A program made the position numbers and the translations under genes. From Nitrosopumilus sp. (GTDB taxonomy: Archaea > Thermoproteota > Nitrososphaeria > Nitrososphaerales > Nitrosopumilaceae), in NCBI GenBank assembly GCA_965224195.1, contig OZ245040.1, positions 1,632,001-1,696,000 of the forward strand: DNA of 64,000 nucleotides. Reading direction: 5' to 3'. A model generated the notes under the pieces. It was given only the letters and a program-made list of their open reading frames with translations, searched no databases and had not been told where the DNA came from. The stretch's first letter is position 1; every line of letters starts with the position of its first letter. This document shows, one piece after another, positions 3,197 through 61,515 of this stretch.

Positions 3197-4978
3197 TTAT
3201 TCATCTTCAAAATAGGAATCATTCATTTCTTCATTTGGTCTTAAATCGTTCCAAAGAACAAATATTCTATATAAATCACTTTTCTCTTTATCATTACATA
3301 GTATTTTGATTTTGTTTATTTCATCACATTGTGTTTGTGAGAGATAAAACTTATGTCTATCAAACCAATACATTATGTCATGATATTCTTCACTGTCAAG
3401 AATTTTTTCTTCAGATTGAATTCTTAATTTATTCAAATATTTCTCAATTTCATTTTTTTTAATTTTAGGTAATAATTCCGGATATAAATCGACCATGCCA
3501 TCTTCTGATATGATTACTGCTACACATTTTTTGTTATTCTTTTCAACATATTTGACTGCTGAATTATATCTTGCACCTCTTGCAGAATTCCCTTTATTTG
3601 TAGCAATACCATCTAATATTACCCCTATTGAATGACAAATACTATGTGTATCAAGTATCACTGCACCGTCAATTGAAGTCACATTTCTTACCAATGATTC
3701 ATTTAACATAGTTGATTCAATGTTTATTGATTGATTTGCTAATCTAACGGCTTCTTTTTCTGCTTCATTTGAAATAATCAATAACGCACCATGCTTTTGT
3801 ATCATCGCAGTATCTACTATTTTTCTTAAATTTTCAATATCTTTTATTGAAATATTTACAAATACACGTTTTAACAAATCTTCAAAAACTTCCTGTTTGA
3901 TTTTTACTTTCGGTATTCTGGGATTTGTGTGTTCTACTATTAACATAGTGTGATTTCCATGCTCCAGTTCCCATTTATGAGAACCGCTGAAATTGACTTT
4001 TGCAAGATCTTGATTCTTTTTATCATATTCTCCTTTCATCTTGCCTAGTCCCAAAATTTCTAATCCGTTACTACACAATGACAAATCTCTTGCTGCAATT
4101 TCTAACAATTTTCGAATTTTTCTGTATTCCGATAATTTGACAGGAATTGCTAATTTTATAGATAATTCTAGATTTGGATGTGTTTCTTTACAAACAATCA
4201 TCTTTCCTATACTTGAATCTCCTTCGTATTTTAACGAAGAAACATAATTGCATGTATTCAAAAATTGCCAAGGTTCCCTTGATTCACATACTGTAGATAT
4301 TACTGAACTGACAAAATTTGATGCTGCAATTCTCATTACTTCTTTTTTATCTGTCCTGATGAATTGTGGATCTGTAGCTGCTCTTGGCCTATACATTGTA
4401 TCTAATGACTCTTCTAAAAATGCCCGTATTAGAGAATCAAGCAATGATACATTCGAAAACCTATCTGTTTTCTTTAATCCGTAAAATGAATCGTAGATAT
4501 TTTCTTCAAATTGTAATATTATAAAAATTTCATAACCTTCAAGATGCACAGATTGAGATACAAATGATATTATTTTTTCTCTTTCAAAATTTTCATCTAT
4601 TAATTGCTGTACTGCACTTCGTACAGAGTCTCTTTTTATTTTGTTATGGTGATTTTCATGAATGTATGGCATTCCATGAAATATGTTTCGCCTTCCATCT
4701 TTCTCCCAAATTGAATTGGTCACATTATCTACATTATTAAATAATTCAATATTAACTCCACAATCTTCTGGTTGTATGCAAACAGGATATTGAATATGTT
4801 TTATCTCTTCTTTTTTATCTCGCAAAATCCCTAACAAAAATACTTTGGGTTTTAATTTTGATGAAATTTCTTGAAATAATTCATTGGCATATAATTGGAG
4901 TGAGCCTTGTGTTGAATGTTGATGTGCCCACATAAAATATTGTAAGGGAGTACCGTAATCTCTAATACCGTCAAACAT
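3197..4978 (-). CDS. diadenylate cyclase (DisA_N/DAC) domain protein with large N-terminal putative sensor region
   Basis: KHGALLII, TSIDGAVILD (DGA motif) and RGARYNSA (RHR-equivalent), followed by ISEDG, in the C-terminal third. Confidence 0.85.
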   Translation of the reverse strand: MFDGIRDYGTPLQYFMWAHQHSTQGSLQLYANELFQEISSKLKPKVFLLGILRDKKEEIKHIQYPVCIQPEDCGVNIELFNNVDNVTNSIWEKDGRRNIFHGMPYIHENHHNKIKRDSVRSAVQQLIDENFEREKIISFVSQSVHLEGYEIFIILQFEENIYDSFYGLKKTDRFSNVSLLDSLIRAFLEESLDTMYRPRAATDPQFIRTDKKEVMRIAASNFVSSVISTVCESREPWQFLNTCNYVSSLKYEGDSSIGKMIVCKETHPNLELSIKLAIPVKLSEYRKIRKLLEIAARDLSLCSNGLEILGLGKMKGEYDKKNQDLAKVNFSGSHKWELEHGNHTMLIVEHTNPRIPKVKIKQEVFEDLLKRVFVNISIKDIENLRKIVDTAMIQKHGALLIISNEAEKEAVRLANQSINIESTMLNESLVRNVTSIDGAVILDTHSICHSIGVILDGIATNKGNSARGARYNSAVKYVEKNNKKCVAVIISEDGMVDLYPELLPKIKKNEIEKYLNKLRIQSEEKILDSEEYHDIMYWFDRHKFYLSQTQCDEINKIKILCNDKEKSDLYRIFVLWNDLRPNEEMNDSYFEDE

Positions 4979-5034: not shown

Positions 5035-5904
5035 TAACGAATCTTAAAACTAACCATTTAGACAGCTTTTGAAGATCATCGGGATTCATGAATAATACAA
5101 TTTACAATAATTTCATGCAATTTACAGAACTGACTGACAAGCAATGGAAAATGACAGACCGGCACATCTCAAAACCTGCTACTACAGGACATCCACAAAG
5201 CAATGACAGAATGGTTTTAAACGGAATCATCCATGTTTTGATTTCTGGATACAGGTGGAGTGAGATGCCAAAAAAATACGGCGATGATTCAACTGCCAAT
5301 CTGAGATTACACAAATGGTAGCAAAAGGGAATTTGGAAAAGGATTCTCAAATGTGTAATAAAATCTGCACATAAACAAAACAAGGTTAATCTGAAAAAAA
5401 TATCAGCTGGTTCATCATCAATTCCAAACAAAAAAGGGGCAGCATGATTAGGTATGACGGGTTCAAAAGAACGGCAGGCACAAAGATACATGTTGCAGCA
5501 GATGGTGGCGGTTTGCCAATTTCAATTAGAACCAGTTTTGCAAATATTCATGACAGTACGAAATTCATTGATGTGATGGAAAACATTTCAGAATGTTTGG
5601 ATGGATTCATGATGGAAGAAATTGTGGCAGCCTGTGCTGAGAAGGTATATGACAGTATGACAATCAAAAATTATCTGAGAGACAGAAGCATCATTCCATG
5701 TATTCCAAAAAGAAACTTCAAGAAAACCAATAAAAAAAAATACAGTTACAAAAACTACAAGATTTGTAGTTGAGGGATTCTTTGCTTGGCTCAAAAATGG
5801 ATTCCATAGAACAACAATCAGATATGAAAGAGTAGCAGAAAATTATCTGGCATTTGTTAACATTACATCATTTTTGATGTATTGCAGGGTTTTGAGATGA
5901 GTTG
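5035..5904 (+). mobile_element. IS5-family insertion sequence, decayed (copy 1 of family A)
   Basis: Transposase fragments 5088-5321 and 5444-5773 (LTDKQW..., W.EMPKKYG, GTKIHVA, ANIHD). Right TIR GTTTTGAGATGAGTTG 5889-5904, degenerate left TIR 5035-5050. Internal stops and frameshifts. Confidence 0.85.
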
Positions 5905-7036: not shown

Positions 7037-7992
7037 CAACTCATCTCAAAACAGATCATTTAGTGAATAATTGATGATCTATGAACAACAATATCTCAAA
7101 TCAATTCATGAAATTCAAAGAATTGACAGGCAAACAGTGGGAAATGATGGAATCATGTGTTCCTCCACCTGCAAAAACTGGCAGGCCAAGAGATGCAGAC
7201 AGAAAAATCATCAACGGAATCATTTATGTTCTGACAACTGGATGCAGATGTGATGACATGCCAAAAAAATACGGCGATGACTCCACTGCAAACAGGAGAT
7301 TAAACTCTTGGCAGCAGAAAGGAATCTGGAAAAAGATTCTCAAATGTATAACTGCATCTGCAAACAAATCAGGCAAGCTAAACCTACAAAAGATATCAGT
7401 TGACTCATCATCAATTCCTGCCAAAAAAGGGAGAGATGTCATAGGATTTGACGGATTCAAGAAAATAACAGGCACAAAAATACATGTTGCAGCAAGTAAA
7501 AGAAAGAGCTAAAGAAAGACAAAAAATACAAGAAAATAACAGGCACAAAAATACATGTTGCAGCAGGGCAAAACGGCTTGCCAGTATCAATTGTGTGCAG
7601 TCCTGCAAATATTCATGACAGTACAAAATTCATTGACGTTATGGAACCTGTTTCAGATTTTGTAGATTGTAATTCCATCAGACAGATTGTATCTTGCTTT
7701 GCAGACAAGGGCTATGATGCAAAGTACATCAGAAATTACCTGAGAGACAGCGGCATTGATTATTGCATTCCATACAAAAAGAATTCAAGGATTATTTTAC
7801 AAGACAACATACAAAATAACGGTTGCAGCAATTACAACAAGACAAGATTTGTTGTAGTGAAGAGATTCCTTGCTTGGCTGAAGAATGGATCTCATAGGAC
7901 AGGAATCAGATACGAAAAGAGCTGTGAGAATTATTTATCATTTGTTTGCTTGGCATCAATTCTGATGTATTGGGGGGTATTGGGATGAGTTG
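7037..7992 (+). mobile_element. IS5-family insertion sequence (copy 2 of family A), transposase interrupted by 71-bp insertion
   Basis: TIRs CAACTCATCTCAAAAC (7037-7052) and GTATTGGGATGAGTTG (7977-7992), 14/16 match. Transposase pieces 7081-7512 and 7578-7988 (VDSS, ADKGYD). Confidence 0.9.
7458..7565. repeat. exact 37-bp direct repeat flanking a unique 34-bp insert
   Basis: CAAGAAAATAACAGGCACAAAAATACATGTTGCAGCA at 7458-7494 and 7529-7565; insert 7495-7528. Confidence 0.95.
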
Positions 7993-60443: not shown

Positions 60444-61515
60444 CTACTCTGTCGAACAAATCATTTCCAACTAATGATTAATTTCATTTCCCTCAAACAC
60501 TTGCAAACAGATTGTACAGCTCGACTTTTAATTCCAATTCCTTTACCATGTATTTTCTTTTGTGAGCCATGACATACTCACCAGACATCCTTTTGAATGT
60601 TGAAAACACACACTCTACAATCCACCTGTCCCCATAGCTAACGCTGCGCTTCCACAAATCCAAATTATACATTTGAGCCAAAACTGATTTCTTTCGGAGA
60701 TAACATTTTGTTTTGAGAGATGATGTCTTTCTAACTTTGATTGCAGGCAGTGCATTTGTGTTGTGGTACAGATATGAAAAGTTGTTTTCTGAATCATATG
60801 CGCCATCAGCTAGAGCCTTGGTTACATTTCCTTTGTACAATGCTTGTTGTACTAGTTCTGGCAGATGTGCCAGGCATCATGGAATGAATCATCAATTATT
60901 TTCAGTGAAACTATTTTCTTTGATTTCACATCTGCACCAACATGGATTTTCAAGAATCCTCTTCTCATGTGCCATTTCTGTCGCATCCATTCACCTCTGT
61001 CTGCAACTGGTAAATAGACCTTCACCACATAGTGTTTCTAATTGCCATTTCTGTCGCATCCATTCACCTCTGTCTGCAACCTTGATTCCAGTGCTGTCAA
61101 TTGCTAAAATGATTTCATTGTTATCTCCAATGGAATTATCAATTTTGATGTCAAGCTTGTTTATTCTCTTGTGAATTGATGTGAAATCAGGAACTGCTGG
61201 AATTCTATTACAGTATGCACGAATCATTCCTTCTGTTTGTCTGAATGGCAGTCCAAAATATGCTCTGGCATAACCCAATAATTTCATAAACGATTCAGGA
61301 TAGCCTGGACTTTCTACCTCTTTTGTTGTGATTCATGACCTCCAGTTCTTTATGCCAGTTCTCAATGACATCAAATGACATGATGTTCTTCACCCCTTCT
61401 GACTAGTTTTTCATTGTATTGACTCCATTGTACCATGAAAATAATCAGAATGTGAGATCCAAATCTATTGTGGTGTAATGATATTGATCAGATTGTTGTT
61501 TGTTAGACAAAGTAC
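60444..61515 (-). mobile_element. IS5-family (IS903-like) element (copy 2 of family B), broken by a 73-bp insertion and frameshifts
   Basis: Same ends as 21707-22701; ORFs 60991-61287 and 60493-60840 nearly identical to 21934-22653. Confidence 0.92.
60970..61080. repeat. exact 38-bp direct repeat flanking a unique 35-bp insert
   Basis: TGCCATTTCTGTCGCATCCATTCACCTCTGTCTGCAAC at 60970-61007 and 61043-61080; insert 61008-61042. Confidence 0.95.

Follow-up and report, generated by a model that had tools for sequence, protein, structure and literature searches.

A repeat-spacer-repeat unit in a Nitrosopumilus transposase gene, a probable product of ectopic Cas1-Cas2 integration, belongs to a genome-wide class of insertions

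We analyzed a 64,000-nucleotide (nt) stretch of DNA from Nitrosopumilus sp. (assembly GCA_965224195.1, contig OZ245040.1, positions 1,632,001 to 1,696,000), which is referred to below as the window and corresponds to C1:1632001-1696000 of a 2.07-Mb genome with 33.6% G+C. The transposase gene of an IS5-type insertion sequence (IS) in this window is interrupted by two identical 37-nt direct copies of its own coding sequence with a unique 34-nt insert between them. Judged from the sequence, this unit is very probably the product of ectopic spacer integration by the Cas1-Cas2 integrase of a resident CRISPR system; the geometry of the unit, the co-occurrence of such units with cas genes and the nature of their inserts all point that way.

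The 37-nt copies (CAAGAAAATAACAGGCACAAAAATACATGTTGCAGCA) lie on the plus strand at window positions 7458-7494 (target copy 1) and 7529-7565 (target copy 2), giving a start-to-start spacing of 71 nt, and the spacer-like insert AGTAAAAGAAAGAGCTAAAGAAAGACAAAAAATA occupies 7495-7528. Because the flanking bases do not agree (T/A before, A/G after), the duplication is exactly 37 nt long; an exact repeat of this length at a 71-nt spacing cannot have arisen by chance. The IS itself is delimited by 16-nt terminal inverted repeats at 7037-7052 (left) and 7977-7992 (right), which are 88% complementary. Its N-terminal transposase fragment, a plus-strand open reading frame (ORF) of 143 amino acids at 7081-7512, matches the IS4/5-family transposase domain DUF4096 of Pfam (E 7.7e-22), reads ...GFDGFKKITGTKIHVAASKRKS and ends at a TAA within the insert. 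The C-terminal fragment (7578-7988, plus strand, 136 amino acids, Pfam DDE_Tnp_1, E 9.9e-12) is in another frame that is open from the second copy onward, 71 not being a multiple of 3. When the 71 nt are removed in silico, a single open frame of 279 amino acids is restored, compared with 144 + 162 amino acids with the insert (only the lengths of the frames were computed). An earlier note on this DNA had claimed the exact duplication around a unique insert, as well as the stop and frameshift caused by the 71-bp gain, and both claims were confirmed. The same note had stated that a related IS carries a single copy of the target and no insert, which is indeed the case for the neighboring diverged element (ORF 5444-5773, ...DGFKRTAGTKIHVAADGGG...), and that the window lacks cas genes; no cas1 or cas2 match was found in it, all three copies of each being located elsewhere on C1.

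Target-site duplications of IS elements are about 2-14 bp long and those of casposons about 14-15 bp. The unit described here resembles them in that a direct duplication of the target flanks the inserted DNA, as expected of staggered strand transfer. It differs from them in the length of the duplication (37 bp) and in the 34-bp insert, which is unique and has neither inverted ends nor a gene. The terminal inverted repeats of the IS lie far outside the duplication, and thus we did not find here the arrangement of an IS target-site duplication, in which a whole mobile element, terminal inverted repeats included, is directly abutted by a short duplication. Cas1-Cas2 integration proceeds by two transesterifications on opposite strands at a ruler-defined distance, followed by gap repair. 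The Cas1-Cas2 integrase is the only known machine that inserts a fragment of 32-40 bp with a fixed duplication of 30-37 bp. In the event proposed here, a resident Cas1-Cas2, aided by Cas4, would have put a prespacer of about 34-35 bp into the IS5-type transposase gene instead of the leader end of an array. The two 3'-OH ends of the prespacer would have attacked opposite strands 36-37 bp apart, the repeat-length ruler of the enzyme, and gap filling would then have left a copy of the 37-bp target at either side of the insert. The expected product is a leaderless repeat-spacer-repeat unit with a gain of 71 bp, a TAA stop and a frameshift, by which this IS copy would have lost its transposase.

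The genome contains three CRISPR adaptation modules, all with intact cas1 and cas2 frames (3/3 each); every pair (C1:714k, 947k and 1455k) sits beside an array, and Cas4 was found in all three. Array A1 (C1 707.2-713.7 kb) has a 36-nt repeat and 89 spacers of 34-42 nt, and is of type I-G; its module comprises a Cas4g/Cas1g fusion (NCBIfam, 714.7 bits with a cut-off of 560), Cas3g, Csb2 and Csb1/Cas7g. Array A3 (C1 1457.2-1466.8 kb) has a 37-nt repeat and 131 spacers of 32-48 nt, and is accompanied by an I-B-like module of Cas7, Cas5, Cas3, Cas6b, Cas1, Cas2 and Cas4. Array A2 (C1 942.1-946.5 kb), with a 30-nt repeat and 67 spacers of 32-39 nt, is accompanied by Cas4, Cas1 and Cas2. The 37-nt duplication and 34-nt insert can thus be set against 36-, 37- and 30-nt repeats and 32-48-nt spacers in the resident systems, and the objection that the lineage might lack a Cas1-Cas2 of matching dimensions falls away because three modules with fitting repeat and spacer lengths are resident. 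As the maker of the transposase event we weakly prefer the I-B-like module with the 37-nt repeat, whose lengths fit directly (12/131 of its spacers are 34 nt long); the alternative is the type I-G module with the 36-nt repeat plus one chance flanking base, 3/89 of its spacers being 35 nt long.

Two side observations were made on these loci. No Cas8b was recognized in the I-B-like operon, and its large subunit gene may be disrupted by an IS240/rve-type transposase ORF that lies on the opposite strand at C1:1447965-1449089 (L018 9966-11090), between an unassigned 449-amino-acid ORF and a 111-amino-acid ORF just upstream of cas7. About 5.7 kb before the window, at C1:1626100-1626400, two to three A1-like repeats form a mini-array that is degenerate; its repeat loop is closer to that of a related species (G014, see below) than to that of the A1 repeat itself, and it may be an orphan remnant array.

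The transposase unit is one of many. A scan of the 2.06-Mb contig for isolated exact direct repeats of at least 25 nt with periods of 20-300 nt yielded 55 pairs, of which 28 have a period of 71-75 nt. In a mismatch-tolerant scan, from which 13 short-period tandem repeats were dropped and to which C1:146508 (within a repetitive gene) was added by hand, we obtained 45 non-tandem repeat-insert-repeat candidates genome-wide. Thirty-three of them form a core class with a duplication of 34-40 nt and a period of 68-78 nt. The duplications span 34-39 nt with a mode of 36-37 (36 nt in 10 of these events and 37 nt in another 10), the inserts are 34-40 nt long and different at every site, and the two copies show no mismatch in 23 cases, one in 8 and two in 2. 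Two extra events with 30-nt duplications and inserts of 36 and 39 nt fit the 30-nt repeat system. The 10 remaining candidates have odd geometries (for example, duplications of 43-57 nt, or insert ends resembling the flanks) and were not counted. A third repeat copy was found in 0/45 candidates, i.e. none of them has grown into an array.

The distribution and coding effects of these events were also recorded. Twelve of 35 events (33 core plus the two with 30-nt duplications) lie within 60 kb of an array versus 6.4 expected (p 0.02, post hoc), and the median distance to arrays is not significantly short (p 0.11). No event (0/35) was found in C1:200000-600000, for which P is about 5e-4 under uniform placement, again post hoc. 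At C1:886994, 911485, 1326527, 146508, 1698884 and 898236 the added length is a multiple of 3 and the reading frame is kept, so that each predicted protein gains about 24 residues (12 duplicated and about 12 new); an example is a conserved 331-amino-acid protein whose orthologues do not have the segment. A second event of the same kind is present in the window itself at 60970-61080, where an exact 38-nt duplication (60970-61007 and 61043-61080) surrounds a 35-nt insert inside ORF 60991-61287, which encodes a transposase (Pfam DDE_Tnp_1_5) on the minus strand and belongs to a different IS.

The origin of the inserts could be traced in part of the core class. For six of the 33 inserts, a distant locus on the chromosome matches from end to end (35/35, 38/38, 36/37, 36/37, 35/36 and 33/36 identities), the homology stopping exactly at the insert ends; two more inserts match partly. 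The 287 array spacers, compared with the genome that holds them, its 7.4-kb second contig included, gave no self match of at least 25 nt. The difference in end-to-end self matches (6/33 ectopic inserts vs 0/287 array spacers) is significant by Fisher's exact test (p = 7.8e-7) and is a prediction of selection against autoimmunity, provided that ectopic units make no CRISPR RNA (crRNA). Three of the source genes (orc1/cdc6, GINS51 and DUF7482) lie together in C1:195.9-234.9 kb; the others are a gene for type I restriction specificity, present as an inverted pair, and a repeated PD-(D/E)XK gene. We note that 3/7 placed self sources fall in one 39-kb stretch (C1:195937-234901), which may be an origin-proximal hot spot of acquisition. 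A second orc1/cdc6 paralogue is found at C1:1112-1114 kb, and GC skew gave no origin location for this genome.

Unoccupied versions of the targets are found among paralogues and orthologues. All 10 aligned IS paralogues elsewhere in the genome (10/10) have a single target copy and no insert, and the closest of them (C1:1227218-1227365, minus strand) contains the identical 37-mer once. When 2.6 kb around the site was searched in 30 relatives, IS copies were found in five of them (G004, G007, G009, G014 and G015); none of these alignments crosses the insert, all of them ending at or before query position 1302 or beginning at or after 1327. The flanks of the IS copy have no DNA-level match in the 30 relatives, and a syntenic empty site was therefore not seen in them. 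For the in-frame event at C1:886994, 6/6 orthologues from related species have one 37-nt target copy and a clean 72-nt gap; for the event at C1:911485, the orthologue search found the gene in 0/40 relatives. The neighboring IS5-type copy at 5088-5800, which is 58% identical in amino acid sequence in its N-terminal part, is itself broken into ORFs of 77 (DUF4096) and 109 (DDE_Tnp_1) amino acids; it contains no repeat-insert-repeat unit and has decayed by other means.

Of 60 relatives sampled, 23 were found to have cas1. The same scan was applied to two related genomes. G014, from a related species, encodes a Cas4-Cas1 fusion and two more cas1 genes of the same sizes and has an array with a 36-nt repeat; in 800 kb of this genome we found 10 isolated events with periods of 72-74 nt, 9 of them with the core geometry. 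One of the 10 inserts has a 37/37 self match inside the sampled 800 kb. In 800 kb of G007, in which no cas1 was found, there were 0 such events, only members of a 75-nt protein-repeat family being detected. Two of the G014 events (G014:C1:124523 and G014:C1:772618) are independent integrations into two IS5-type copies at the same target, in reverse-complement orientation and with different inserts; the shared target points to a preferred site. A third event (G014:C1:377456) is in the DDE region of the same IS family, and IS copies thus look like recurrent or well-tolerated targets.

The presence of the insertion in reads was examined in k-mer contigs (Logan, 31-nt words) from three public runs, X1, X2 and X3, of two studies. 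All three contain the insert, flanked left and right by repeat sequence, without a single difference, covering window positions 7465-7558 in X1 and X2 and 7465-7565 in X3. The depth of the insert-bearing piece is 447 in X1 (407-669 in neighboring pieces), 99 in X2 (97-175) and 22 in X3 (8-24). In X3, the run of the second study, a 235-nt contig agrees with the window as far as 7457, where exactly one more base would enter the duplication, and continues with 104 nt of unrelated sequence; this may stem from another IS copy, from strain variation or from a different insertion at that position.

We next consider the targets. Viewed from the outside inward, the junctions have C at -2 in 26/66 views (p 1e-5) and G/C at +1 in 42/66 views (p 6e-7). 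The three CRISPR repeats share GYTTCAAT at the leader-distal end, which we take to be the complement of the crRNA 5' handle, with an orientation presumed from the ATTGAAA(C/G) handle. At least 6 of these 8 bases are found near one end in 14/33 events versus 4.46 expected (p 4e-5, post hoc); in the transposase gene, the 3' end of copy 2 (7529-7565) reads TGCTGCAAC... on the minus strand, a 6/8 match. We keep this end motif as a lead only. In an unbiased k-mer analysis, words containing CTG are enriched at the ends (GCTG 9 vs 1.7 expected, ACTG 11 vs 2.8), and these reflect a junction bias and not a long motif. A fixed-position motif was also sought by Gibbs search with orientation as the only freedom, and was rejected, since the 12 positions yielded 3.4 bits in all and the logo was not crisp.

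The earlier note had read the unit as an ectopic spacer integration that inactivated the transposase, and this is supported by the geometry, the cas modules, the class of like events, the self-derived inserts and the empty sites. Three findings that would speak against it were not obtained: the insertion is present in the contigs of the 3 runs and 2 studies at a depth like that of the flanks, Cas1-Cas2 modules of suitable dimensions are resident, and the insert is not a templated copy of nearby sequence. Several other points do weigh against ectopic Cas1-Cas2 integration. Cas1 is tied to the events by correlation across genomes, i.e. two cas1-bearing genomes versus 800 kb of a cas1-less one. 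The 34-nt insert of the transposase unit has no source nearby or elsewhere in its own genome, where the best non-self ungapped match is 26/34 and several loci reach 24-26, which is the chance level. The exact 34-mer is also absent from viral, metagenome and genome contig collections, a search that a source with one mismatch would escape. The flanks of the self-derived protospacers, read in both orientations, share no protospacer adjacent motif (PAM). Over its full length the target of the transposase event has 11/36, 11/30 and 16/37 identities with the resident repeats (p > 0.3). The GYTTCAAT enrichment was defined after the data had been seen and was not replicated in G014 (2/10 vs 1.24 expected, p 0.36). 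In the reads, the empty allele has no 31-nt words of its own, and a minority of unmodified cells would be invisible to the contigs; the insert-bearing pieces include 30 nt of the left repeat, one under the bridging criterion of the contig tool; and the assembly itself may come from the sample of X1 and X2. Short matches to the insert were also inspected (18 nt in G014, and 19 nt with one mismatch at C1:218k) and discarded as low-complexity chance (25/34). Full-length similarity of the targets to the three repeats is at the chance level for nearly all of the 45 candidates.

These observations leave some room for an enzyme other than Cas1-Cas2, namely an integrase, a transposase or a repair pathway of a kind not yet known that makes staggered breaks of about 37 bp and fills them with captured DNA. 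Targets unlike whole CRISPR repeats, the PAM that was not seen and a link to Cas1 that is correlative would all be compatible with such an enzyme. However, the two classes of duplication (34-39 and 30 nt) equal the lengths of the resident repeats, the inserts of 34-40 nt equal those of the spacers, and the events occur in both cas1-bearing genomes and not in the 800 kb of the cas1-less relative. The known target duplications of IS elements and casposons are much shorter, and there is no casposase-like extra cas1 in the genome, whose cas1 matches are limited to the three beside cas2 and the arrays. Taken together, we regard a different enzyme as very unlikely.

Could the unit instead be a functional, expressed mini CRISPR array of the type found on some viruses, and not an accident? 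Single-spacer mini-arrays are described for archaeal viruses and proviruses in the accessible part of PMC8616872, and the unit, being in sense orientation relative to the transposase gene, could be transcribed. According to the same portion of that source, the repeats of the viral and proviral mini-arrays match the CRISPR repeats of the host exactly or very closely (PMC8616872). The unit described here likewise has one spacer between two repeats, but these "repeats" are transposase coding sequence that occurs once in 10 paralogues and is unlike the resident repeats. Recognition by Cas6 is not expected because of this dissimilarity, the unit has no leader (no leader-like flank was recognized), and growth by a third copy was seen at none of the candidate sites. 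An expressed mini-array is thus extremely improbable.

The short period and the direct copies would also follow from replication slippage, or from a local tandem duplication in which the middle of the 71-nt unit later diverged, and a few candidates (for example C1:778950, d78) do have insert ends like their flanks. The 34-nt insert, however, is unlike the sequence on either side of the repeat and unlike any IS paralogue, the 37-nt copies are identical, divergence cannot wipe out 34 nt and leave 74 untouched, and other events have inserts copied exactly from loci at distances of hundreds of kb; we consider that this explanation can practically be dismissed. An artefact of assembly or sequencing (a chimeric join) has next to no credibility either: the unitigs do break at the 37-nt repeat and no single piece spans the whole stretch, but the insert with flanking repeat was recovered without differences from 3 runs of two studies at flank-like depth, about 33 sites share the same precise geometry and the same class is found in the assembly of another species.

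Ectopic integration by Cas1-Cas2 has precedents. Nivala, Shipman and Church are said to have reported off-target ("non-canonical") spacer integration giving rise to neo-CRISPR loci, in Nat Microbiol in 2018. The accessible part of a preprint (bioRxiv 10.1101/148544) describes off-target integration in E. coli with up-regulated acquisition genes and circumstantial evidence in two other species, and calls its commonness "unclear." The events analyzed here are like neo-CRISPR loci in that a spacer-length fragment was placed outside an array and a repeat-length stretch of the target was duplicated to give repeat-spacer-repeat. Unlike those of the E. coli work, they are natural and archaeal, co-occur with type I-G and I-B-like modules, number about 33 in 2.06 Mb and are all single-spacer, many of them with self-derived inserts. 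Shmakov et al. reportedly attributed isolated or orphan arrays to off-target spacer acquisition (CRISPR J, 2020). Such arrays and the present units are both repeat-spacer units far from cas genes, but the "repeats" of the latter are coding sequence of a host gene or IS. In the available part of PMC13142298, off-target acquisition is given as one proposed origin of isolated arrays, with a citation of Shmakov et al. (2020). The Cas1-Cas2 of Pyrococcus furiosus alone integrates spacers in vitro at non-CRISPR sites that share features of the repeat, at a fixed distance (PMC6698737, accessible part). That work was performed on plasmids in vitro, whereas the events described here were fixed in vivo, and their sharing of repeat features is weak (the junction preferences for C at -2 and for G/C at +1, and a GYTTCAAT motif that is partial and unreplicated in G014). 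A literature search found no report of such events in ammonia-oxidising archaea, the primary papers on off-target integration being outside its reach. The single transposase event appears to be an instance of a known phenomenon; the roughly 33 natural events, repeated in a sister species, appear more interesting, and their natural density unusual.

It is possible, and we put this forward tentatively, that the type I-G and/or I-B-like adaptation modules of the genus are intrinsically promiscuous, such that leaderless full-site integration is a regular mutational process and not a rare accident, and one that may sample the chromosome near the orc1/cdc6 region. If so, two species would carry about 11-16 fixed events per Mb, by which genes and IS elements are broken and in-frame segments of 24 amino acids are added to proteins. 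Self-derived inserts, which would be lethal inside real arrays, would preferentially survive at ectopic sites, and these fossils would chart, as a natural record filtered by selection, how the integrase chooses its targets and how archaea naively acquire self sequence.

One more feature of the window adjoins the two IS copies: a 593-amino-acid protein encoded on the minus strand at 3197-4978, which has a diadenylate cyclase (DAC) domain of the DisA type besides DACNG and DACNH sensor domains.

Provided that Cas1-Cas2 made these units, they offer a natural series of about 33 events, dated by mismatches between their copies, for which paralogues and orthologues supply empty sites, a sister species behaves alike and a cas-less relative serves as negative control. 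CRISPR adaptation would then have a measurable mutagenic cost for these archaea, in that transposases and other genes are truncated and 24-amino-acid segments are inserted into proteins. The tolerance of self-derived spacers outside arrays and not inside them would be a direct footprint of selection against autoimmunity. For annotation, insertions of 71-76 bp may explain puzzling frameshifts and should not be labelled CRISPR arrays. Genomes of organisms that are hard to manipulate could also tell which targets and donors the type I-G and I-B-like integrases prefer.

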